64,000 nucleotides of DNA from a phage: assembly GCA_014435945.1 (NCBI GenBank), contig GCA_014435945.1_4088.1; one strand, given 5' to 3'. The notes below the pieces were generated by a model. The model was not told the DNA's origin, did no database searches, and was given only the letters and a program-made list of their open reading frames with translations. Made by a program: the position numbers and the translations under genes. How positions within the stretch are numbered: position 1 is the first letter of the stretch; every line of letters starts with the position of its first letter. Shown piece after piece: positions 81-38,690 of this stretch.

Positions 81-689
81 GTGGTACGATTATGTAAAGA
101 AATCATCCAATCTATTATTATTATTTTCTTAATTAACTTTCCTGCAAGTGCAGGTGTTGAAAGAAAAAGTATCATTAGATATGATGAATCTAAACAGACA
201 GTTCAGTTCATTTCAACTTTAACTGAAAATTCTGTAAACCGTTTGATGGTTTTTAGAGAAACACACCCATTTGACACTATCATCATTACGTCACCGGGTG
301 GTGATTTTGATGCGGGAGTGGCACTAGGAAATTTTGTCAATGATAACAATTTAACAATTATTGTTGAAAGATATTGTAATTCTTCTTGCACTATCGCATT
401 CTTTAGTGCTAATATAGAAAACAGATACATGATGAAGGACTCAATTCTAGGTCTACATAATGTGTCAATCGAAAGTAAAGCACGAAATAGTGATGACACA
501 TACATAACAGTTCGCCAAATGACTATTTTTGCTGAACAGCTATCAACTAAGGTTGGTGTTCTATTTGCGTTATATGCAGCGAATGGTATTCCTCCAGAAT
601 TGTTAGTGGAGGTTAGTAAGGTTCGTGGTAATGAAGTTGTGAGACTTACACCAGATCAGTTGCTCGAATTAGGTAGTATCATTCATTAG
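81..689 (+). CDS. secreted ClpP/crotonase-fold protease-like protein
   Basis: GTG start 8 nt after AAGAGGG; hydrophobic N-terminal signal-like segment; TSPGGDFD motif reminiscent of ClpP-family peptidases. Confidence 0.35.
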   Translation: MVRLCKEIIQSIIIIFLINFPASAGVERKSIIRYDESKQTVQFISTLTENSVNRLMVFRETHPFDTIIITSPGGDFDAGVALGNFVNDNNLTIIVERYCNSSCTIAFFSANIENRYMMKDSILGLHNVSIESKARNSDDTYITVRQMTIFAEQLSTKVGVLFALYAANGIPPELLVEVSKVRGNEVVRLTPDQLLELGSIIH

Positions 690-781
690 TATTAGATACA
701 AAATAATAATATTATAATAAGAGGATGATAAAGTGGTACATCCTTTGTTATAAGTTCACATACACTAGGAGTGTATAAACT

Positions 782-1042
782 ATGACAAATTTACAAAACT
801 TAACATCTCTTGTTTTTTATGCAACAACTATTGTATATTGCATTACATTAGTTTTAACATGTTTCATCTATAAAGACTACAAACGTGGTTTTATGGATTC
901 CAGTACACACAAATTTGCATCCAAGTTCGAAGCAGGAATTTACTATGTTCTATCAATTTCTTATGGAGCATGTTTACTTACACTAGGGTTGCTGATATAC
1001 TGGTTGTATACGGCACTTTTTGCACAAGGAGTTATTTCATGA
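782..1042 (+). CDS. small membrane protein (hypothetical)
   Basis: ATG ORF with two long hydrophobic segments. Confidence 0.4.
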   Translation: MTNLQNLTSLVFYATTIVYCITLVLTCFIYKDYKRGFMDSSTHKFASKFEAGIYYVLSISYGACLLTLGLLIYWLYTALFAQGVIS

Positions 1043-1632
1043 CTTGTATTATCGCTCACACAAATGGCACATCTTCCTTCATCGCTGGTGATAAATTAGG
1101 AAGCAATGGTTTCACTAAAGCAGTTCAAACTGAGCCTAAAGTGTTTGAGAAAGAGTTCATTAAACTCAATGAGGATGGTCTTACTCGCACTAAAGAAGTA
1201 ATGGCGTTAGGGTATACTACATCGTTCCGCATGGGTCAGTTGTTGAATTACAACCTAACTCTACCAGAACAAGTTGCAGGGGAAACCTTTTCACAGTATC
1301 TAGTACTGAAAGTTATTCCTATCATTCGTCAAATGTTTAAAGATGAATGGGGTGCTCGTGATGCATCACAAGATGTTGGTGGTGGTCAGTTCATTATTCT
1401 TCATAATCATACGATTTATGAAGTTCAAGAAGACTTTTCAGTACTGCAACCTAAAACACAAATTACTGCTGTCGGAAGTGGGACTTATCATGCAATTGCA
1501 TCCATGTCAGCGTATATTGAAGTTCAAGAAGAAACCAATGTTCAGTTACATGAACGTGTTGAGTCTATTTTCAAAATTGTTAGTGATAATGTAACAAGTG
1601 TTAGTCCAGAGTTTGATATTTTGAAATACTGA
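1039..1632 (+). CDS. HslV/proteasome-beta-like Ntn-hydrolase peptidase
   Basis: ATG 8 nt after AAGGAG; N-terminus MTCIIAHTNG..FIAGD parallels HslV MTTIVSVRRNG..VIAGD (Thr at position 2); internal AVGSG motif. Confidence 0.45.
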   Translation: MTCIIAHTNGTSSFIAGDKLGSNGFTKAVQTEPKVFEKEFIKLNEDGLTRTKEVMALGYTTSFRMGQLLNYNLTLPEQVAGETFSQYLVLKVIPIIRQMFKDEWGARDASQDVGGGQFIILHNHTIYEVQEDFSVLQPKTQITAVGSGTYHAIASMSAYIEVQEETNVQLHERVESIFKIVSDNVTSVSPEFDILKY

Positions 1633-1663
1633 GAATAATAATTATAAAGAGAGAGTGTATCTG

Positions 1664-1855
1664 ATGGCATACATAATTTACGAGTGGATTTTTTGTTTCA
1701 TAGTTGTGTTTATTTGTGTGGTGTTATACAATCACACTAAATGTTTATACCGAGAATTCAGGAATGGTAATAAACATGGACACAATAAGTGGATGTATGT
1801 CTATCATATTGCTATCATTGTATTTTTAGTATTAAACTTGATACTTTTTATATAA
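1664..1855 (+). CDS. small membrane protein (hypothetical)
   Basis: ATG after AAAGAGAGAG; hydrophobic helices; ORF track gave GTG at 1655. Confidence 0.35.
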   Translation: MAYIIYEWIFCFIVVFICVVLYNHTKCLYREFRNGNKHGHNKWMYVYHIAIIVFLVLNLILFI

Positions 1856-1864
1856 GGAGTAAAT

Positions 1865-2617
1865 GTGATATCAGATAAATTTATACAAAATGCTGGGAAC
1901 AAAAGATTACTTATAATTTCAGGGGCAGGTCTTTCAGTTGAGAGCGGGATGGAACCATTCCGCTTTGATGATGGGTTGTGGGACAATTTCAAAATTAATG
2001 ATGTTTGTAACATTGCACGACTTAGTTCTAAGTATCATGTAGTTCATTCATTTTATAATACATTGCGTGTAAAATTAGGTGAATGTCATCCTAATGAAAT
2101 GCATTACTTTATTAAATCATTAGAAGATTTGTATGGTGATTGTTTTTTACACATGACTTCTAATATGGATGATCTATATACTAGAATTGGTGGAACCGAA
2201 CTCAAACTACACGGAAATTTATGTGAAGTAATTGAGAACTTTTCTATTAATACTGATGATTACAATGTCATTAATTGTGGTTATGAACCATATATTCCTA
2301 AAGCTGATGTTTTTGCAAAACCAAATGTAGTGATGATTGGTGAGTATCATCGCTACGTTGATGGGGTACGTCTCCCCATTTATGAAGAACGAAATGAAGT
2401 GTTGAAAAGTCTCACAGAAAATGATACAGTTGTAGTTATTGGAAGTAGTGATACAGTACTGGTATGGTCCAGACTAGCTGGTGCACTTCCATGCTATAGT
2501 GTAAATGTTAACATCCGAAAAAATGATAATGATTTTCTTTTTAATGAGAAGGTCATCAAACCTGCGACGAAAGCAATTCCACAGGTTGAAACTATAATTA
2601 AGGAACGAATGCGATGA
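1865..2617 (+). CDS. Sir2-family NAD-dependent deacylase/ADP-ribosyltransferase-like protein
   Basis: Sirtuin motifs GAGLSVESG, HPNEMH, NMDDL..LHG, VVMIGE, VIGSSDTV; GTG start 6 nt after AAGGAG. Confidence 0.7.
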   Translation: MISDKFIQNAGNKRLLIISGAGLSVESGMEPFRFDDGLWDNFKINDVCNIARLSSKYHVVHSFYNTLRVKLGECHPNEMHYFIKSLEDLYGDCFLHMTSNMDDLYTRIGGTELKLHGNLCEVIENFSINTDDYNVINCGYEPYIPKADVFAKPNVVMIGEYHRYVDGVRLPIYEERNEVLKSLTENDTVVVIGSSDTVLVWSRLAGALPCYSVNVNIRKNDNDFLFNEKVIKPATKAIPQVETIIKERMR

Positions 2618-3165
2618 GTAAAGCGGAAGTACCACTGGGGCAAATGGGGAAACGTGCAAATTTTGTATTCTGTTTCTTTTATGCAAAAGAATGTACCCCA
2701 TACGCTGGTTATGAACTAAATGATATCCCAGTGGTTAACTTAGTACTCCTACAAGTGCGTTGGGATGGATTGTTGGGTGCATGTGGTGGAACAGTTGAAA
2801 GTACTGATAAGTCATTAGAAGATGCGTTACAGCGTGAAGTTCAAGAAGAAATGAACTATATCATTGACAAAAGTCGCCTGTCTCCATTAAAATCACTTGA
2901 ATTGTTTCCAGAGGGTCACTCACATAGCTATAGTTATGAAATGACTTATGCTGAACTTAAAAAACTTCGTGATAATTATGCATATGGCAAACATGCTAGT
3001 GCAGAGGTGGCTGGTGTAAATTTATGTCACATCTCTCGTTATTCGAAGGGACAAAATCGAGAAGCAGGATATAATAATCTTATGACACAGAACTTCATCG
3101 GAACTGCGAAACAAGAATTAGAGTATCTTGTACAAAAAGAAAACTTACTAATCAGCTATCTATAG
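2614..3165 (+). CDS. Nudix hydrolase
   Basis: Nudix box GGTVESTDKSLEDALQREVQEEMNY (one-residue insertion relative to consensus); start overlaps upstream stop (ATGA). Confidence 0.6.
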   Translation: MSKAEVPLGQMGKRANFVFCFFYAKECTPYAGYELNDIPVVNLVLLQVRWDGLLGACGGTVESTDKSLEDALQREVQEEMNYIIDKSRLSPLKSLELFPEGHSHSYSYEMTYAELKKLRDNYAYGKHASAEVAGVNLCHISRYSKGQNREAGYNNLMTQNFIGTAKQELEYLVQKENLLISYL

Positions 3166-3174
3166 GAGTTTAAA

Positions 3175-3495
3175 ATGTCGTACTCAATGTTCTTGGATGA
3201 TATTCGTGATTATCAAAAATATTATCCTGACCAAGAGATGGTATTGTGTCGTGACTACGAAAGTGCATGTGAATACGTAATCAAAAATGGAATTCCAGCA
3301 TTTGTCTCATTTGACCATGACTTGGGTGACTTGAGTACAGATGAGAAAACGGGATACACTTTTGCCAAATTTCTAATTGATTATATGTTTGAGCATAATA
3401 TTAAAGAACCATTTAAATACTATGTACATAGTAGTAATCCAGTAGGGAAAGTTAATATTGAAACTTACTTAACTAATGGATTTAATGCACTATGA
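3175..3495 (+). CDS. hypothetical protein (possible receiver-like fold)
   Basis: ATG after GGAG; LDDIRD ... FDHDLG pattern loosely reminiscent of a receiver domain; no firm assignment. Confidence 0.45.
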   Translation: MSYSMFLDDIRDYQKYYPDQEMVLCRDYESACEYVIKNGIPAFVSFDHDLGDLSTDEKTGYTFAKFLIDYMFEHNIKEPFKYYVHSSNPVGKVNIETYLTNGFNAL

Positions 3496-3794
3496 TTTCA
3501 ACACATATCAAGAGTCTTATTTGCACAACACTGTTAGGTATAGGTGTTCTATGGTTCAGTTCATATCATGAGAACACTAAACGTTACAATATTCATTACA
3601 ATACAGCGACTGTAACAGGATTAGGTCAATGTAATGAAAATAAATGCTCATTTACTTATAAAACCAGTACTGGTGAAGTTCGTAATGGGTTATCAAGAGA
3701 TCCAGTATCAATTGGTCAACTAGTTTACCAGGAATGCTGGGAGGAAAAGGCTCGTGGTTCAAGATGTTATGTTGAATACGAACCGAGCATGTAA
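3492..3794 (+). CDS. hypothetical protein with N-terminal hydrophobic segment
   Basis: Start overlaps upstream stop; N-terminal TM/signal-like stretch; several Cys. Confidence 0.45.
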   Translation: MISTHIKSLICTTLLGIGVLWFSSYHENTKRYNIHYNTATVTGLGQCNENKCSFTYKTSTGEVRNGLSRDPVSIGQLVYQECWEEKARGSRCYVEYEPSM

Positions 3795-3855
3795 TATTCC
3801 GAGTCACTAACCATTAGTCGAGTACAAGGATGTACTCATAACTCAAGGATGTTTT

Positions 3856-5295
3856 ATGAAAAAATATACAATTGACACAAACGTACTACTATCTGATCCA
3901 AATGCTACCATTGCTTTTGATGGAGCAGCTATCATTCTACCGTTCACAGTACTTGAAGAATTGGATTCAATCAAAAGTCGTAATGTGGATGTTTCCCGTG
4001 ATGCTCGTGTTGCAATCCGTAACATTGAAGCTATCCTTTCTGATGCATCACATGAAGAAATTAGTAGTACTGGTGTTAATATTGCTGATGTTCATACTAA
4101 TATGAGTCCTGAAAGCAAATTGTTTGTTATTACAAGCGAAGAAGCTGAAGCACTAATTCGTACTGCTGGTAACGAAGAGAAAGTTCAAACTCTTCTAAAA
4201 AGCACAGTACCAGATGATAAAATCATTTTAGTAGCATTAGCAACTGATTCAGTACTGGTTACCCGTGATATCAATATGCGTATCAAGGCTCTAAGCTACG
4301 GGGTGGAAGTTCAAGATTACCGTCATGATATCGTGATTGGTGATAGTGATTTGATTCACATTGGTCAACATCACCTTGACCTACATTTCTGGGATGTGTA
4401 TAGTAATCTGACTGATGTATCTATTCAGTCTGAACAAGTTGGTCGTCGTTTGTACCACTACATTCCAAAAAGCTTGATTGAACATATCATGCCACAAAAT
4501 ATTTGCATCGGTGATTACCTATATGATAATGCTGATGTTCTATTTGTGTACGAAGGTCAATCTGCAATTGAAGAAGATGATGGTACTTTAACACCAGAAG
4601 ATATTCTTGTATTCCAAGATATTGGACAATCCGTTGCTCTACGTGCTAAAGTGTGGGATATTAAGGCTAAGAATATTCAACAAGCACTAGCAATCAACAG
4701 TATCCTAGATCCTGATGTTCATCTAACAGTACTGTTAGGTTCAGCAGGTACTGGTAAAACACTAATCACCATTGCAACTGCACTAGAGTTAGTTCTAGAG
4801 AAGAAAAAATACGACCGTATCATCTTCTCCAAAACACAAGATTCCCAATTCGAAGACATTGGTTTCTTGCCTGGTTCTGAAGCAGAGAAAGTGATTCCTT
4901 TCTGTGGTGCGGCAATCGATGCGTTGGAATTCCTACACAAAGATGATGCTAACCCACAAGGCAGTATCGAAGAAATCATGAAACGCAATGTTATCCAATT
5001 CAAAGCACTAAACTTCGTTCGTGGTCGTTCTTTCACAAATACTATCCTAGTAGTTGATGAATTCCAGAACATCACACCTGCTCAGGCAAAAACAATCTTG
5101 ACTCGTGCAGGGATGAACTGTAAAGTGGTTATTATGGGCAACTTGAGCCAGATTGACTCTAAATTCATTAGTCCAGTAAACAGCGGCCTAACTTATGTTA
5201 CCGAGAAGTTCAAGAACTGGGACGGCTGTCGTGTAATCGAACTAGAAGGTGTCGTTCGTTCACCACTAGCAGAATTTGCAGAAGAAAATATGTAA
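3856..5295 (+). CDS. phoH: PhoH-like ATPase with N-terminal PIN domain
   Basis: N-terminal PIN-like IDTNVLL; C-terminal Walker A LLGSAGTGKT and Walker B ILVVDEFQN typical of PhoH. Confidence 0.85.
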   Translation: MKKYTIDTNVLLSDPNATIAFDGAAIILPFTVLEELDSIKSRNVDVSRDARVAIRNIEAILSDASHEEISSTGVNIADVHTNMSPESKLFVITSEEAEALIRTAGNEEKVQTLLKSTVPDDKIILVALATDSVLVTRDINMRIKALSYGVEVQDYRHDIVIGDSDLIHIGQHHLDLHFWDVYSNLTDVSIQSEQVGRRLYHYIPKSLIEHIMPQNICIGDYLYDNADVLFVYEGQSAIEEDDGTLTPEDILVFQDIGQSVALRAKVWDIKAKNIQQALAINSILDPDVHLTVLLGSAGTGKTLITIATALELVLEKKKYDRIIFSKTQDSQFEDIGFLPGSEAEKVIPFCGAAIDALEFLHKDDANPQGSIEEIMKRNVIQFKALNFVRGRSFTNTILVVDEFQNITPAQAKTILTRAGMNCKVVIMGNLSQIDSKFISPVNSGLTYVTEKFKNWDGCRVIELEGVVRSPLAEFAEENM

Positions 5296-5361
5296 TAATG
5301 TGTGGGACATTCGTCCCATACATGATATAATAATATTGTTAACAACAAAGGAGAAATACTC

Positions 5362-5559
5362 ATGGCAAAGCAACCTAAGAAAAAAGAACCAGTAGCAAAA
5401 GTTAAGAAAGTTAAAGTTATTCAATCTAAAGAACAACGTAATTACGAACTACGTAAAGCAGAAACCCTATCAGGTCTTCAAGCTCTACGTAAACAAGGTG
5501 TTCTAACTCGTGCTCAATACCGTGAGATAGTAGCACAAAAAGGTTATTGGTCCATTTGA
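5362..5559 (+). CDS. small basic protein (hypothetical)
   Basis: ATG after AAAGGAG; Lys/Arg-rich 65-aa ORF followed by a terminator. Confidence 0.45.
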   Translation: MAKQPKKKEPVAKVKKVKVIQSKEQRNYELRKAETLSGLQALRKQGVLTRAQYREIVAQKGYWSI

Positions 5560-5653
5560 AGCAATAAACTGGAGTTCATGATAAATACTTTCATAAGAAT
5601 AATAATACTTTTTATTAATTTAAAAAGAACTCCATGTGTTATTTCAGTTTTTC

Positions 5654-5681
5654 ATCCCTGTCTTTTGGCAGGGATTTTTTC
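5654..5681 (+). terminator. intrinsic terminator
   Basis: ATCCCTG-tcttttgg-CAGGGAT hairpin followed by TTTTTT. Confidence 0.7.
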
Positions 5682-5775
5682 TTTCTAGATATTGACAAAA
5701 GGATTAAACCATGAGAACATGTAGTAAAGGAAGAATGACATTCCATTAGGTTAGTTTAACTTAAAGGAGAAATAT

Positions 5776-6333
5776 ATGTTTTTTGACCAAACATTTACGT
5801 TGTACCATGATTCAGGTAAAGTTGAGATTATTGATAATCTGTTAGAGTACATTGCGGAACATGACGGTATAGACCGTTTCCACAGTAAGATGAAATTCGA
5901 TTTAGCTGAATTCAACAAAAAGAATCGTGAAACATTTTGGAAGAACCGTTTCTATTACGAAATGTATCCAGAAAAGTTCGTAGGTTATTATCTTTGTACT
6001 GAAAAAGGATTACTTGTATCTCCTGATTTACTTATGGGTGAATACATGATACTCTATAATGAGTACTGGGAACATAAGCGTAATGCTCGTGACACTGAAT
6101 GGCGACACAAGCGTTCGTATATGTACAAACATAACCACTCCAGATACAAACGTCCTAAGACCCAACAAGAGCGTCGTATGGCTTGTGCAGTACTGAAGGA
6201 TGAGGGGGAACCTGAAATACGTGGAAGACGTAAGATGCGTTCATTGCCATCGTATTGGGATGATATCAGAACAAGACACAGTACTGGCTGGAAATACAGT
6301 ACAAAACGTAAACATCAATACAAAGGGAGCTAA
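5776..6333 (+). CDS. hypothetical protein
   Basis: ATG after AAAGGAG; 185-aa ORF with basic C-terminus. Confidence 0.5.
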   Translation: MFFDQTFTLYHDSGKVEIIDNLLEYIAEHDGIDRFHSKMKFDLAEFNKKNRETFWKNRFYYEMYPEKFVGYYLCTEKGLLVSPDLLMGEYMILYNEYWEHKRNARDTEWRHKRSYMYKHNHSRYKRPKTQQERRMACAVLKDEGEPEIRGRRKMRSLPSYWDDIRTRHSTGWKYSTKRKHQYKGS

Positions 6334-6360
6334 TGCTCCCTAATTTTATAGGTGAACTTT

Positions 6361-6690
6361 ATGAACAAAATTGACGTTACTGTAGTGATTGGTTATATTG
6401 AAATTGAACCGTGTGGCATTGATACCTTTATTGACACTCTTAATAAGTATCGTGCTGAATATGACGGTCACATTAGTCTTTCACCAGACAGTGGTTACGG
6501 CGGTTTTCATGGATACAATGTAATTTGGACCAGAGAAGAAACTGACGAAGAATATAATACACGAATTGAAGCTGAATCTAAAAGACGTGAAGAAATTGAA
6601 CGTCAAGAAATGAAACACTTAATGAACAAGAAATCATTAAGTACCGAAGAGAAATCTAAACTTTTAAAATACATCAAGGATTACATGTAA
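6361..6690 (+). CDS. hypothetical protein
   Basis: ATG chosen in frame with the ORF-track GTG at 6352; charged C-terminal helix. Confidence 0.45.
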   Translation: MNKIDVTVVIGYIEIEPCGIDTFIDTLNKYRAEYDGHISLSPDSGYGGFHGYNVIWTREETDEEYNTRIEAESKRREEIERQEMKHLMNKKSLSTEEKSKLLKYIKDYM

Positions 6691-7337
6691 TGAAAAATGT
6701 ATCACAAGAAAAGATTCTGTACCTTGCAAAGTACAATGGTGGATTTAATATTACCAGTTGTGAATATCATGGTAACATGGCTAAAATGATTGACGAGCTA
6801 CTAGAAGGTAAAATGCTCCGTTGGGAGACAAATGACCTTTGGTACGAATATGCGGGTCAACAATGGGAAAGTGACTACGATAATGCAATTCATACGTATA
6901 CAATTACTAAAAGTGGTGAAGTACGTTTGGCTATCATGCGTTGTGCTTACACTTACAAAAATTTCAAAGATGAAGAAAAGCATATTCGCCGAAATGAAGA
7001 GTTAGTACACCTAATGGGTGAAGCTGGCATTACAATGCATGACTTGTTCAATGATCCAAGATGGACTGGAAAACTGTCCAAAGCAGAATACAAAGCATTA
7101 CGATACATCCAAGAACCAGAAATCAACAAACCTAAAGAATGTATTGATGATGGTGAACTAAGCCTCAAAAATGTATTTGAAAGTACCAGTACTGAAAGTA
7201 TTACAGACATTTCTGTACAGATGGCACTAAAAGCAATGGAACTTTTCAAGACACAATATGAAGGACACAGTGCTGAAGAAGTAGAGCGTGAGTTCATTAC
7301 GCGAGTACAAATTGCATTACATAAATCAAAAAAGTAG
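6690..7337 (+). CDS. hypothetical protein
   Basis: ATG overlapping upstream stop; 215-aa ORF. Confidence 0.5.
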   Translation: MKNVSQEKILYLAKYNGGFNITSCEYHGNMAKMIDELLEGKMLRWETNDLWYEYAGQQWESDYDNAIHTYTITKSGEVRLAIMRCAYTYKNFKDEEKHIRRNEELVHLMGEAGITMHDLFNDPRWTGKLSKAEYKALRYIQEPEINKPKECIDDGELSLKNVFESTSTESITDISVQMALKAMELFKTQYEGHSAEEVEREFITRVQIALHKSKK

Positions 7338-32045: not shown

Positions 32046-32456
32046 ATGATTGAAATGGAAGGAACTCTGGTGTATGATCCAGATCGTGGCACTATGAAAA
32101 AGAAGAAGGACTTCTGGTTAGTACTGCAACTTCCATTACAGTTGGTTCGATACTACCAGTACTTCATCAGAACTGACTTACATATTGATATCAAAGACCC
32201 ACAATGGGGAGCACATGTCAGTATCGTTCGTGGTGAAGTGCCACCAAATCCAGAGTACTGGAAAAAGTACGATGGTATGAAAGTTAAGATTAAGTTCGAA
32301 CCTTTCATCGAAGAAGTAAAAGACAATAAGAAACCTGGGTCATTCTTTATCATAGAGTTTGAAGATGATTTCATTGCACAAATTCGTGATGAACTTGGTT
32401 TAGCATCTAAATATTTCAAATATCACATCACCATTGGTAGAACATACTACGATTAA
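32046..32456 (+). CDS. 2H-phosphoesterase-superfamily protein (LigT-like)
   Basis: Two H-x-[ST]-x motifs about 90 residues apart: GAHVSIVRGE and KYHITIGR. Confidence 0.5.
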   Translation: MIEMEGTLVYDPDRGTMKKKKDFWLVLQLPLQLVRYYQYFIRTDLHIDIKDPQWGAHVSIVRGEVPPNPEYWKKYDGMKVKIKFEPFIEEVKDNKKPGSFFIIEFEDDFIAQIRDELGLASKYFKYHITIGRTYYD

Positions 32457-35758: not shown

Positions 35759-36874
35759 ATGAAAAAGTATTTGGTTGGTGGCTACGTTCGTGACCGTTTA
35801 ATGGGCATCCGTGCAAAAGACAAAGATTATGTTATTGTTGGTGCTACCGAATCCGATATTAAGTACTTGCAAAGTATTGGATACAAGCAAGTAGGTAAGG
35901 ATTTCCCTGTATATCTAAGTCCAGAAGGTAATGAACACGCATTAGCCCGTACTGAGCGTAAAACTGGTACTGGATATGGTGGCTTCGAAGTGAATACAAA
36001 AGGTGTGACACTAGAACAAGATCTATATCGTCGTGATCTCACAATCAATAGTATTGCATATGATCCAGTACTCCAGATTCACATCGACCCTTATGGCGGG
36101 AAAGCTGATATCAAGAACAAAGTACTTCGTCATGTATCAGAACACTTTAAAGAAGATCCATTGCGTGTTCTACGTTTGGCCCGTTTCGCTACGCGTTACT
36201 CCGACTTTACAATCCATGATGATACTATGACAATGTGTAAAGATATGGTTAGTACTGGTGAACTAGACCATCTAGTCCCAGAACGTGTATTTGTTGAATT
36301 CGAAAAAGCACTTTCTGAAGAAAACCCTTCCAAGTTTATCAAAACTCTGGTACAATTTGGTTATTACGAAAAGGCATTTACTACAGTTCCAGTTACCAAG
36401 AAACGTCTGGAATTAATTGATGCTATCGCTGCAAATTGTACAGAAGAATATAAACCATATTTCTTATGGACAGTACTTCTTGAAAATGAAGAAGTAAATA
36501 ATGATTCAGTACTTAACGGTTCCATTAAGGTTCCAGTTAAGTACGTGAAGTTTAGTAATTACATCAAGCGTTTCCGTGAAGATATTAAAACCTTCCGTAA
36601 GAAGACCCCAGTTGAAATGGGGCAAATCTTACTGGATATGAATATCAAAAACAATGGTGGTGAAGATTTCCTTTACAAAGTACTGGAAAACTTCATTTTG
36701 AACAAAGAAATTGATTCTGAACTTGAAGATTTGATTATTAAAGTTTATGATCGTTATACTGATGTTGAATTACCTGATATTCAGCAGTTAGTGAAAGATG
36801 GTGAACTCCAAACATCGGAGATTCGTGATTTTGTTGCTGAATTGCGTATTGAAGCAATCAAGCAAATGTTCTAA
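35759..36874 (+). CDS. cca: tRNA nucleotidyltransferase (CCA-adding enzyme)
   Basis: Head-domain motifs GGYVRDRLMG, DxD, RRDLTINSIAYD, ERKTGTGYGGF. Confidence 0.85.
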   Translation: MKKYLVGGYVRDRLMGIRAKDKDYVIVGATESDIKYLQSIGYKQVGKDFPVYLSPEGNEHALARTERKTGTGYGGFEVNTKGVTLEQDLYRRDLTINSIAYDPVLQIHIDPYGGKADIKNKVLRHVSEHFKEDPLRVLRLARFATRYSDFTIHDDTMTMCKDMVSTGELDHLVPERVFVEFEKALSEENPSKFIKTLVQFGYYEKAFTTVPVTKKRLELIDAIAANCTEEYKPYFLWTVLLENEEVNNDSVLNGSIKVPVKYVKFSNYIKRFREDIKTFRKKTPVEMGQILLDMNIKNNGGEDFLYKVLENFILNKEIDSELEDLIIKVYDRYTDVELPDIQQLVKDGELQTSEIRDFVAELRIEAIKQMF

Positions 36875-36949: not shown

Positions 36950-37394
36950 ATGCGTTATAGCTGTGGTATAATATTTTATCGTGATGGTCAGATACTTATC
37001 GGGCATACAACACGGACAGAATCACTGGGACTTACCTAAAGGTAAAACTGAAGGTACAGAAACATTTAAAGAGGCTGCTGTACGTGAATGCTACGAAGAG
37101 ACAGGATATGAAATCGATGAAGATGATCTTCTGTTTCTTGGTGATGTATCGTATAGAAAGGGGAAACGTTTAGTTTTATTTTTCTATACAGCCAAAGATA
37201 AGCCTATACCAGAAGAGTTGGTGTGTAAAAGTACTTACACAAACAGATATGGTAGAAGTCACCCAGAATTGGATAAGTTCATGTACATTGATGTACTAGA
37301 TTGTCAAAAGTATTTGACTGAACGAATGTGTAACAGTATAATAAAGGCTGTTACAATGTTTCAACGAAATAAAGGGAAAAGAAATGAAAGTTAA
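36950..37394 (+). pseudogene. Nudix hydrolase with apparent +1 frameshift near codon 25
   Basis: Frame A (ATG 36950) encodes Nudix-like N-terminus GIIFYRDGQILIGHTTR then stops at 37037; frame B (+1) encodes LPKGKTEGTETFKEAAVRECYEETGY (perfect Nudix box) to 37394. Confidence 0.55.
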
Positions 37395-38213: not shown

Positions 38214-38690
38214 ATGATACATGAACACCTAGGTAATTTGTTTGAATTGTTCAACTCTGTTACTGATGATCAAACCGCGTTGCATATAATCGCTCATGGT
38301 TGTAATGCACAGGGTAAGATGGGTTCGGGTTTTGCAAAAGAACTAAGAAATCGTTACCCGATGGCATATGATGATTATAAAGCATATGAAAAGGAAATGG
38401 GATTTCTAAGAACAGGACAAATTTCATATTCTTCTATAAGTGATGATTTGCTTATCGCAAACTGCATTACCCAACAGTACTATGGTAATGACGGTTCTAA
38501 GTATGTAAGTTATGATGCAATCGATGATGTTTTCAAACAACTAAATTACTTATGTAACGTTGAACGCACTGTTCATGTACACTTCCCGAAAATTGGAGCC
38601 GATTTAGGCGGTGGTAACTGGAACGTTATCAAAGAAATCATTGACCACAGACTGGTTAATGCAGAAAAACACTTATACATTCTAAAATAA
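38214..38690 (+). CDS. macro-domain protein (ADP-ribose binding/processing)
   Basis: ALHIIAHGCNAQGKMGSGFA resembles the macro-domain motif [IV]xHxxNCQGxMGAGIA. Confidence 0.55.
   Translation: MIHEHLGNLFELFNSVTDDQTALHIIAHGCNAQGKMGSGFAKELRNRYPMAYDDYKAYEKEMGFLRTGQISYSSISDDLLIANCITQQYYGNDGSKYVSYDAIDDVFKQLNYLCNVERTVHVHFPKIGADLGGGNWNVIKEIIDHRLVNAEKHLYILK

Follow-up and report, generated by a model that had tools for sequence, protein, structure and literature searches.

Three adjacent genes on the plus strand of a phage DNA of 64,000 nucleotides (contig GCA_014435945.1_4088.1 of GenBank assembly GCA_014435945.1; this whole stretch is called the window here) raise the question of what a sirtuin (1865-2617), a Nudix hydrolase (2614-3165) and a small receiver-like protein (3175-3495) could do together. 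The original prediction described them as a possible NAD/ADP-ribose module, with the Nudix enzyme hydrolysing ADP-ribose and related nucleotides and with protein (de)modification or counter-defence as its possible role. We found all three open reading frames (ORFs) at these coordinates, and the genes are real, functionally linked and centred on NAD+/ADP-ribose. However, the Nudix protein is assigned by its sequence to the NUDT16/X29 type and not to the generic ADP-ribose pyrophosphatases, and the unit is larger than three genes, running through Sir2, Nudix, cREC (cyclic-phosphate-processing receiver-fold protein), a membrane protein and PIN/PhoH to position 5295. Protein (de)modification and counter-defence are still live rivals, but the comparative context favours a NAD+-dependent RNA-end processing or repair module, because cREC and this sirtuin clade are associated with genes for RNA ligases, polynucleotide kinases and end-healing phosphatases; we regard this explanation as plausible, though tentative. 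The window is of the Asteriusvirus (PBECO4/121Q-like) type of E. coli jumbo phage: over bases 1600-5400 it shares 99.8% identity with Escherichia phage vB_Ec-M-J (OQ718158), an annotated Asteriusvirus, and about 81-82% with PBECO4/121Q-type phages.

Sirtuin, Nudix and cREC proteins

The first gene (1865-2617) encodes 250 amino acids from a GTG start and was recognized as a Sir2-family protein by Pfam (SIR2 PF02146, E=1.3e-19, 71.3 bits vs a cut-off of 24, model positions 1-178 of 180) and PHROGs (phrog_2162, 7.9e-74). E. coli CobB was its closest PDB relative by sequence (2.3e-21) and also the top Foldseek match of its AlphaFold2 (AF2) model (predicted local distance difference test score, pLDDT, 91.6; TM-score 0.75 on query length and 0.84 on target), and the 50 best Foldseek matches listed were all deacylase-type sirtuins. 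Residue conservation was judged on alignments of 8 and 29 sequences. The GAGxSxxSG motif is common to the phage protein and CobB; G20, G22, S27, N100, D102, H116 and G117 are invariant across the 29 members of the clade, where A21, S24 and G28 are also almost unchanged. Of the residues expected from the Sir2 assignment, the catalytic His (H116) is present, whereas the zinc-ribbon Cys are absent: no Cys is aligned with the CobB zinc ligands, and C120 and C138 vary within the clade. In addition, Ser takes the place of the Gln in TQNxD, and Leu that of the Arg in YxxR. All jumbo-phage, rV5-type and T5-type members are without zinc-ribbon cysteines and have Ser, Ala or Thr replacing this Gln, and the jumbo-phage members carry Leu or Met at the YxxR Arg, the residue with which class III sirtuins recognize acidic acyl groups. 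Only the distant relative P0149 keeps CxxC...CxxC, and it retains the Gln of TQNxD as well; therefore, both losses are traits of the clade and not alignment artefacts. The window Sir2 matches 987 phage records, including T5- and rV5-like phages.

These data bear on one alternative, in which a CobB-like, NAD+-dependent deacylation of lysines by the sirtuin would reshape the acylation of host or phage proteins, and the Nudix enzyme (with cREC) would dispose of O-acyl-ADP-ribose or ADP-ribose. CobB and the SIRT5-class deacylases are the nearest relatives in sequence and structure, the NAD-binding motif, N100, D102 and catalytic H116 are invariant, public records label the gene 'NAD-dependent protein deacylase', and in yeast a Nudix enzyme, Ysa1, is known to clear the by-products of sirtuins (PMC4004948). 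However, the protein scored only 84.7 and 89.3 bits against the cut-offs of 320 and 318 for the CobB protein deacylase equivalog (NCBIfam NF040867 and NF001755), which was accordingly rejected, and the clade has lost the zinc ribbon, the TQNxD Gln and, in its jumbo-phage members, the YxxR Arg. Moreover, protein deacylation would leave unexplained the cREC, its fusion with the Nudix domain and the RNA ligase, kinase and phosphatase neighbours in rV5, T5 and metagenomic phages; we consider it unlikely as the function of the cassette. A defence-type SIR2 NADase (Thoeris ThsA, DSR, SIR2-HerA) was also rejected, the PADLOC scan having no Sir2 match and giving only a 16-bit partial Nudix match over the four cassette proteins scanned. 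None of the cassette proteins matched the Tpt1/KptA models in Pfam and NCBIfam, and under RNA-end processing the sirtuin is proposed as a functional analogue, not a homologue, of Tpt1/KptA.

The closest public record (GenBank OQ718158, EcMJ_211) starts Sir2 at the internal ATG 1949, by which 28 residues are cut, including the GAGxSxxSG NAD-binding motif. Since a strong Shine-Dalgarno sequence, AAGGAG (1854-1859, plus strand, by direct sequence reading), lies upstream of GTG 1865 with a 5-nt spacer, and the ATG 1949 start would delete the NAD-binding motif, GTG 1865 is the better start, and we judge the start in that record to be mis-annotated. We also observed that RaK2-type sirtuins (Sir2 of Klebsiella phage RaK2 at L003:5258-5995; P0131 and P0134) carry GNG in place of GAG in their NAD-binding motif, and their segment corresponding to 'FR' of the other members is shortened and divergent; the activity of sirtuins in this lineage may be altered or decaying.

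The second gene (2614-3165, plus strand, 183 amino acids) matched both Pfam Nudt16-like (PF22327, E=1.5e-18, 67.7 bits vs a cut-off of 27) and Pfam NUDIX (PF00293, E=2.4e-7, 31.3 bits vs a cut-off of 21.1), so that the predicted Sir2 and Nudix identities both held, with Pfam above the gathering scores, PHROGs in agreement and the catalytic motifs intact. It is homologous to human NUDT16 (5wji, 8.8e-12) and Xenopus X29. The Nudix box (residues 58-82, GGTVESTDKSLEDALQREVQEEMNY) aligns with that of human NUDT16 without gaps (13 of 25 residues identical), its RE..EE is kept in the phages BF, RaK2, CBB and Munch, and the Gly of xGU is Asn. In the alignment the equivalents of human R50, E76, E79, E80, E136 and I164 are retained (phage R49, E75, E79, E131 and I162 align with R50, E76, E80, E136 and I164); in the structure of NudT16 with ADP-ribose, these human residues serve as ligands of metal, phosphate and adenine (PMC6459841). 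The equivalent of H24 lies outside the alignment and, by extrapolation only, is probably Y23. At the 'mouth' positions F36 and F61 of human NudT16 the phage enzyme has the smaller residues L35 and T60; truncation of the two mouth residues in the human enzyme favoured bulky substrates (PMC6459841), and NUDT16 removes protein-conjugated ADP-ribose (PMC4680915, PMC6459841). Judged from these residues, the phage Nudix is of the NUDT16/X29 type, whose known substrates include conjugated ADP-ribose and RNA caps, and not a generic pyrophosphatase of free ADP-ribose.

A word-indexed homologue search gave 11 close relatives only, and the exhaustive HMMER search was used for the family view. The NUDT16-like family proved small, with 223 representative clusters in 1.84 billion proteins, and among phage records the Nudix occurs in 75, nearly confined to Rak2-like jumbo phages. 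One metagenomic protein, P0236 (391 amino acids), is a Ham1-family inosine triphosphatase (ITPase) fused to a Nudt16-like Nudix, which suggests that part of the family works in inosine-nucleotide sanitation; NUDT16 has inosine diphosphatase (IDPase) activity. The closest relatives of the phage Nudix are cREC-linked ones, not the Ham1 fusions.

It is here that a further alternative has to be weighed, namely RNA decapping and turnover or nucleotide sanitation without joint chemistry: the Nudix would remove NAD- or ppp-type 5' caps, feeding the PIN-PhoH RNase, or would hydrolyse (d)IDP, and its neighbours would be merely co-inherited early genes. The Pfam family label of PF22327 ('U8 snoRNA-decapping enzyme-like') agrees with it, as do the inosine-nucleotide sanitation indicated for some members by the Ham1 fusion, the predicted PIN-PhoH RNase/NTPase two genes downstream of cREC, and a broad synteny across Rak2-like phages that makes adjacency alone weak evidence. 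Joint function is argued nevertheless by the Nudix-cREC fusion and by the adjacency of cREC and Sir2 in the unrelated phage rV5, and the nearest relatives of the Nudix, being cREC-linked, also speak against sanitation; this alternative seems very unlikely to us.

The third protein (3175-3495, plus strand, 106 amino acids) had been called loosely receiver-like, and it does have a receiver fold: it was assigned by PHROGs and by Pfam cREC_REC (PF20274, E=1.9e-23, 83.4 bits vs a cut-off of 27), and the best structural matches of its model (pLDDT 96.8) were receiver domains. The model has four strands and four helices, i.e. four beta/alpha units and not five, and D8, D9, R11, D47, H48, D49, H85, S86 and N88 form an invariant cluster in 58 sequences, in which D8, D9, D47 and D49 are the Asp residues conserved at the receiver-type active site. 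A classical REC/CheY receiver was rejected, because with four units there is no beta5 Lys and no partner histidine kinase was seen in the neighbourhoods sampled; compared with REC/CheY, cREC adds the invariant H48, D49, H85 and N88. No solved sequence relatives of cREC were found, and it matches 141 phage records. Previous work states that cREC is never associated with histidine kinases, offers its cyclic-phosphate phosphodiesterase activity as a prediction and calls cREC experimentally uncharacterized (PMC9503650).

Gene order in jumbo phages and in unrelated phages

The overlap of the Sir2 stop and the Nudix start was as predicted, the Nudix ATG (2614-2616) and the Sir2 TGA (2615-2617) sharing the sequence ATGA (4-nt overlap). 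The Nudix TAG is followed by a 9-nt gap to the cREC start at 3175 and falls inside the Shine-Dalgarno site of cREC itself (TAGGAG); the two ORFs are in the same reading frame, split by TAG plus 9 nt (3163-3177). No tRNA genes are present in the window, which leaves read-through of this TAG by a phage suppressor tRNA unsupported, and as cREC also has a separate Shine-Dalgarno site, Nudix and cREC were treated as separate proteins. Downstream follow a small membrane-anchored, Cys-containing protein (3492-3794, plus strand; phrog_14661 'membrane protein', 1.2e-38), whose ATG at 3492 overlaps the cREC stop in another ATGA (4-nt overlap, translational coupling), and a PIN_4 plus PhoH (PhoH2-type) predicted RNase/NTPase (3856-5295, plus strand; Pfam PhoH 8.5e-45, PIN_4 4.5e-20). 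The genes at 1865-5295 probably form one co-transcribed, conserved jumbo-phage cassette.

Indeed, the order Sir2-Nudix-cREC-membrane protein-PIN/PhoH is kept in Eneladusvirus BF (Serratia), Alcyoneusvirus RaK2 (Klebsiella), Mimasvirus CBB (Pectobacterium) and Salmonella phage Munch, i.e. in five Rak2-like jumbo-phage lineages including that of the window. Sir2 of the window is 43-64% identical to its counterparts in these four phages, and the window proteins are 44-69% identical to those of BF, PIN-PhoH reaching 69% with the BF orthologue at the same position; the membrane protein occupies the same position in all four (45% identity in tblastn with the BF protein). Nudix and cREC are a single polypeptide in BF (302 amino acids, by Pfam) and in the metagenomic P0163, a single ORF of 299 amino acids is annotated at this place in CBB, and cREC starts 10-25 nt past Nudix in 11 phage records (coordinate cross-check). 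For this neighbourhood Iyer et al. 2022 (Viruses 14:1977; PMC9503650, section 3.7.3) predicted NAD+-dependent RNA repair, with the sirtuin as Tpt1/KptA analogue, cREC opening cyclic phosphates and the Nudix degrading the ADP-ribose product; the 'PIN domain endoRNase' which they name has its window counterpart in PIN-PhoH (3856-5295).

Since shared ancestry could explain the Rak2-like synteny, unrelated lineages were examined. In rV5 (Vequintavirus), a T4 Rnl1-type RNA ligase, cREC and a zinc-less Sir2 are consecutive (4-nt overlap, then 8-nt gap), and this trio adjoins a divergent P-loop kinase, a calcineurin-like phosphoesterase and a tRNA array. T5 has Sir2, two small ORFs and then a 'Swiss-army-knife' RNA-repair HAD phosphatase, and a 135-kb metagenomic phage contig (L016) has the order phosphoesterase, Rnl1, kinase, HNH, Sir2. 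In freshwater phage contigs a stand-alone cREC gene directly precedes one for an Rnl2-type ligase, and in a further contig it lies between HAD_PNKP and Rnl1, all three within five genes. The neighbours of cREC in Aeromonas phage CC2 are a CCA-adding enzyme, a kinase-like gene and an HD hydrolase. The association with RNA repair was thus sampled in 3 of 8 metagenomic cREC contexts plus rV5. We argue for a joint function because of the Nudix-cREC fusion and because cREC and Sir2 are adjacent in the unrelated rV5.

The L016 locus (L016:1-1960 and 3331-6774) also has NadR-like (CTP_transf_like plus AAA_28) and PnuC-like (nicotinamide mononucleotide transporter) genes about 4-6 kb upstream of the Sir2 cluster. 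The NARP3 paper concerns an unrelated NadR/PnuC system and not this cassette; with the NARP3-type pair of L016, NAD+ resupply genes are found for a second time close to the zinc-less sirtuin clade.

The first case is found in the sister genera, where genes for Nampt and NMNAT-Nudix (NARP2-type; NARP2-type NAD+ reconstitution is defined in PMC13464706) lie just upstream of the cassette in BF, RaK2, CBB and Munch. Moreover, next to Nampt/NMNAT, the gene two upstream of Sir2 matches Pfam Acb1 in BF (gp110, L002:4504-4950, 148 amino acids, 3.6e-15, labelled 'RNA ligase' in RefSeq) and in Munch (L005:4407-4853, 148 amino acids, 1.7e-16, 'hypothetical protein'), and CBB gp118 (L004:4472-4918) is Acb1-like by position and the shared 'RNA ligase' label only. 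With matches above the cut-off, the neighbouring '2H' gene of BF and Munch is identified as Acb1, an anti-CBASS 2H phosphodiesterase. These neighbours suggest an alternative in which the cassette is a counter-defence module in an anti-defence island: Nudix and cREC would degrade immune signals of the NAD-derived or cyclic-phosphate kind, or would remove ADP-ribose added by host toxins to phage RNA, DNA or protein, and the sirtuin would modify or demodify a host defence component. The NARP3-type pair upstream of the zinc-less Sir2 in L016, the removal of protein-conjugated ADP-ribose by NUDT16 and the small mouth residues L35 and T60, a feature tied to bulky substrates in the human enzyme, are all consistent with it. 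However, tblastn with Nampt, NMNAT, the Acb1-like protein and the Zn-binding protein of BF, the T5 HAD-SAK and the rV5 Rnl1 gave no match in the 64-kb window, and none of Nampt, NMNAT, Adps/Namat, NadR/PnuC and Acb1 is annotated in OQ718158 at 70000-135000. The cassette is therefore independent of Acb1, Nampt and NMNAT, as it persists in a window that is without them. PADLOC gave no meaningful match, a NAD+-consuming sirtuin would be an odd weapon against NAD+-depleting defences, cREC associates with RNA ligases and PNKP and not with known anti-defence genes, and NAD+ resupply beside a NAD+-consuming repair enzyme would be equally expected under RNA repair. A counter-defence role is thus improbable in our estimation.

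Several other features of the locus were recorded. A terminator-like hairpin (5654-5675, plus strand; 9-bp stem, then T-run) is a possible end of the transcription unit; it was the sole such site in 600-5800 by consensus scan, which with 1 site observed vs 2.2 expected by chance is weak evidence alone, and the promoter scan gave 30 sites vs 22.8±4.4 expected. The 61-nt gap ahead of PIN-PhoH holds CAAGGATGT twice, 18 nt apart (3820-3855), the first copy within a short inverted repeat (GAGTAC...GTACTC) and the second as ribosome-binding site of ATG 3856; from this arrangement, the repeat may have a regulatory function. Two protease-like genes lie directly ahead of the cassette, one ClpP-like (81-689; Pfam CLP_protease 4.4e-4, phrog 'protease') and one HslV-like (1039-1632; phrog_1040, 1.9e-23). 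NMNAT and Nampt come next after the ClpP-like gene in RaK2, and it is this NAD-salvage position that the HslV-like gene takes in the present phage. Between the HslV-like gene and Sir2 there is an unannotated ORF of 66 amino acids (1655-1855) with two hydrophobic segments and no PHROG match; at the equivalent position RaK2 has a hydrophobic protein of 88 amino acids and BF a Phage_zn_bind_2 protein.

Proposed role in RNA-end processing

The pathway that we propose is inferred in all its steps from what was observed directly, i.e. gene identities, residue conservation, folds, gene order, the Nudix-cREC fusion and the adjacency to RNA-repair genes. Host or phage ribonucleases would leave 2',3'-cyclic phosphates on RNA ends, and cREC, with its four-unit receiver fold and conserved Asp/His cluster, would open these cyclic phosphates. 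The zinc-less sirtuin could then use NAD+ in the fashion of Tpt1/KptA, a phosphate oxygen attacking C1'' with displacement of nicotinamide and the ribose hydroxyl activated by His116 resolving the adduct. The NUDT16-like Nudix would cut the pyrophosphate of the ADP-ribose product, free or RNA-attached, with release of AMP. The macro domain protein (38214) and the 2H-like protein (32046) could finish the clearance of by-products, and the T4-type Rnl1 ligase and Pnkp of the near-identical vB_Ec-M-J genome could seal the RNA. This scheme would follow ordinary sirtuin chemistry, where the attack on C1'' comes from an acyl oxygen and leads to a 1',2'-cyclic intermediate. The analogy with Tpt1 would be chemically natural, as both use an oxygen nucleophile at C1'' and then the adjacent ribose hydroxyl by way of a 1'',2''-cyclic species, and such shared chemistry would explain why the catalytic His is kept while the zinc ribbon is lost.

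The distal genes drawn on here had been listed in the original prediction, with results that varied from gene to gene. The macro domain protein (38214-38690, plus strand), related to Appr-1''-p phosphatase, was borne out: although Pfam Macro gave 20.4 bits, just below the 22-bit cut-off, PDB macrodomains matched (2fg1 7.8e-16, 5e3b 2.1e-11, ADP-ribose 1''-phosphate phosphatase 6lfu 1.7e-6), so that its solved relatives include the Poa1-type ADP-ribose-1''-phosphate phosphatase, and PHROGs gave phrog_335 'phosphatase' (3.1e-46). The predicted 2H phosphoesterase (32046-32456, plus strand) does have both HxS/T motifs (HVSI, HITI), but Pfam 2H-SAK (5.9e-5, 23.8 bits) stays below the 27-bit cut-off, and we call it probable; it has no PDB sequence relative and no tblastn similarity to the Acb1-like 2H of BF, and it is the only 2H-like ORF of the window, 28 kb from the cassette. 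The second Nudix is present, with its start about 30 nt away from the predicted 36,950 (36981-37394, plus strand; Pfam NUDIX PF00293 9.6e-12, phrog_1185 5.7e-46), and is a generic MutT/RppH-like enzyme, its PDB matches being generic MutT, Ap4A hydrolase and decapping Nudix proteins only, with E of at least 2.5e-5. The window also encodes a tRNA nucleotidyltransferase of the CCA-adding type (35759-36874, plus strand; Pfam PolyA_pol head 5.5e-19, RNA-binding domain 3.1e-10), annotated as tRNA nucleotidyltransferase in OQ718158. The vB_Ec-M-J genome encodes the T4-type Rnl1 and a full Pnkp beyond the limits of the window, about 13-16 kb upstream of its Sir2 gene.

A number of points weigh against RNA-end processing. 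T4-type Pnkp and Rnl1 heal 2',3'-cyclic phosphate ends without making a 2'-phosphate, and a Tpt1-like step is not obviously needed because the phage already has both enzymes; PIN nucleases are metal-dependent and leave no cyclic phosphates. Literature searches found no experimental paper on phage sirtuins or cREC and no sirtuin shown acting on RNA, and the nearest relative of the sirtuin, by sequence as well as by structure, is a genuine protein deacylase. The acidic character of Sir2 and cREC (median pI 5.5 and 4.9, respectively) is atypical of RNA-binding proteins, although this is a weak test. As for the gene context, an RNA-repair neighbour is absent in 5 of the 8 sampled metagenomic cREC contexts and from the Sir2 context of a KVP40-like Vibrio phage, the conservation in Rak2-like phages is in part shared ancestry, and in the sister genera the cassette abuts the Acb1-like and Nampt/NMNAT counter-defence genes.

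A more specific form of the proposal is that the zinc-less sirtuin is an RNA 2'-phosphotransferase or RNA-phosphate ADP-ribosyltransferase which evolved independently of Tpt1/KptA, that cREC represents a new type of cyclic phosphodiesterase, metal-independent and with a truncated receiver fold as its scaffold, and that the Nudix trims RNA-linked or free ADP-ribose, together providing a second, NAD+-driven RNA-healing route alongside T4 Pnkp/Rnl1. We find this form conceivable but somewhat doubtful. Should the predicted chemistry of the cassette hold, it would give the first sirtuin shown to act on RNA, the first enzymatic role of a receiver fold outside the phosphorelay, and a new way for phages to undo the RNA damage that anticodon nucleases, toxin RNases and other bacterial defences cause. 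Whether the sirtuin serves RNA repair, deacylation or the disarming of immunity also bears on host-range prediction, as the clade is widespread and includes the therapy-used T5- and rV5-like phages.

Comparison with known systems

Many public records already carry Sir2 and Nudix annotations for these genes, and the neighbourhood type with its predicted role was published in 2022. The value of the present analysis lies in confirmation and sharper family assignments, and the window adds no decisive evidence on function. The additions are the NUDT16-type Nudix with conserved ADP-ribose contacts, the zinc-less and Gln-less sirtuin signature (of which the main text of PMC9503650 makes no mention), the four-unit cREC model, the Acb1 identity of the '2H' gene in the sister genera, the absence of this gene and of NAD salvage from the present locus, and the mis-annotated Sir2 start.

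The closest known system is configuration 1 of Iyer et al. (Serratia phage BF; PMC9503650), which has the sirtuin, Nudix, cREC and PIN-domain protein in the same order as 1865-5295 and in the same Rak2-like group. In contrast to BF, where they are fused, Nudix and cREC of the window are separate, in-frame ORFs split by TAG, and the adjacent 2H (Acb1-like) gene, the Zn-binding small protein and the Nampt/NMNAT of BF, CBB and Munch are absent, an HslV-like gene lying upstream instead. Compared with E. coli CobB and class III sirtuins, the phage Sir2 has GAGxSxxSG, the N and D of TxNxD and the catalytic His-Gly, but is without zinc-ribbon cysteines, has Ser, Ala or Thr for the Gln of TQNxD and Leu for the first Arg of YNARR, and carries an extra beta-hairpin insertion of about 11 residues after FGE. 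Vertebrate NUDT16 and Xenopus X29 act as U8 snoRNA-decapping enzyme and as pyrophosphatase of ADP-ribose and protein-linked ADP-ribose; the phage Nudix keeps their metal ligands, adenine and phosphate contacts and gap-free Nudix box, but it is operonic with or fused to cREC and differs in the smaller residues at F36/F61 and in Asn for the xGU Gly.

Two RNA-repair pathways complete the comparison. The tRNA repair by T4 Pnkp and Rnl1 against anticodon nucleases would share its biological purpose with the cassette under RNA-end processing, and both enzymes are encoded in the near-identical genome, but the T4 route needs no NAD+, sirtuin, cREC or Nudix. In the fungal and plant tRNA-splicing pathway, Trl1 (ligase, kinase and 2H cyclic phosphodiesterase) is followed by Tpt1/KptA, Cpd1 (2H), Poa1 (macro) and Ysa1 (Nudix). 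The Tpt1 mechanism is described in PMC6333775 and PMC11417386. The window encodes candidate phosphodiesterases (cREC and 2H-like), a candidate NAD+-transferase in the sirtuin, a macro domain protein and a Nudix, with ligase and kinase nearby in the genome. The sirtuin fold is unrelated to Tpt1 and the cREC fold to 2H, so that any likeness would be one of function; with this qualification, the cassette together with the macro domain protein would mirror the by-product pathway of yeast Tpt1, Cpd1, Poa1 and Ysa1.

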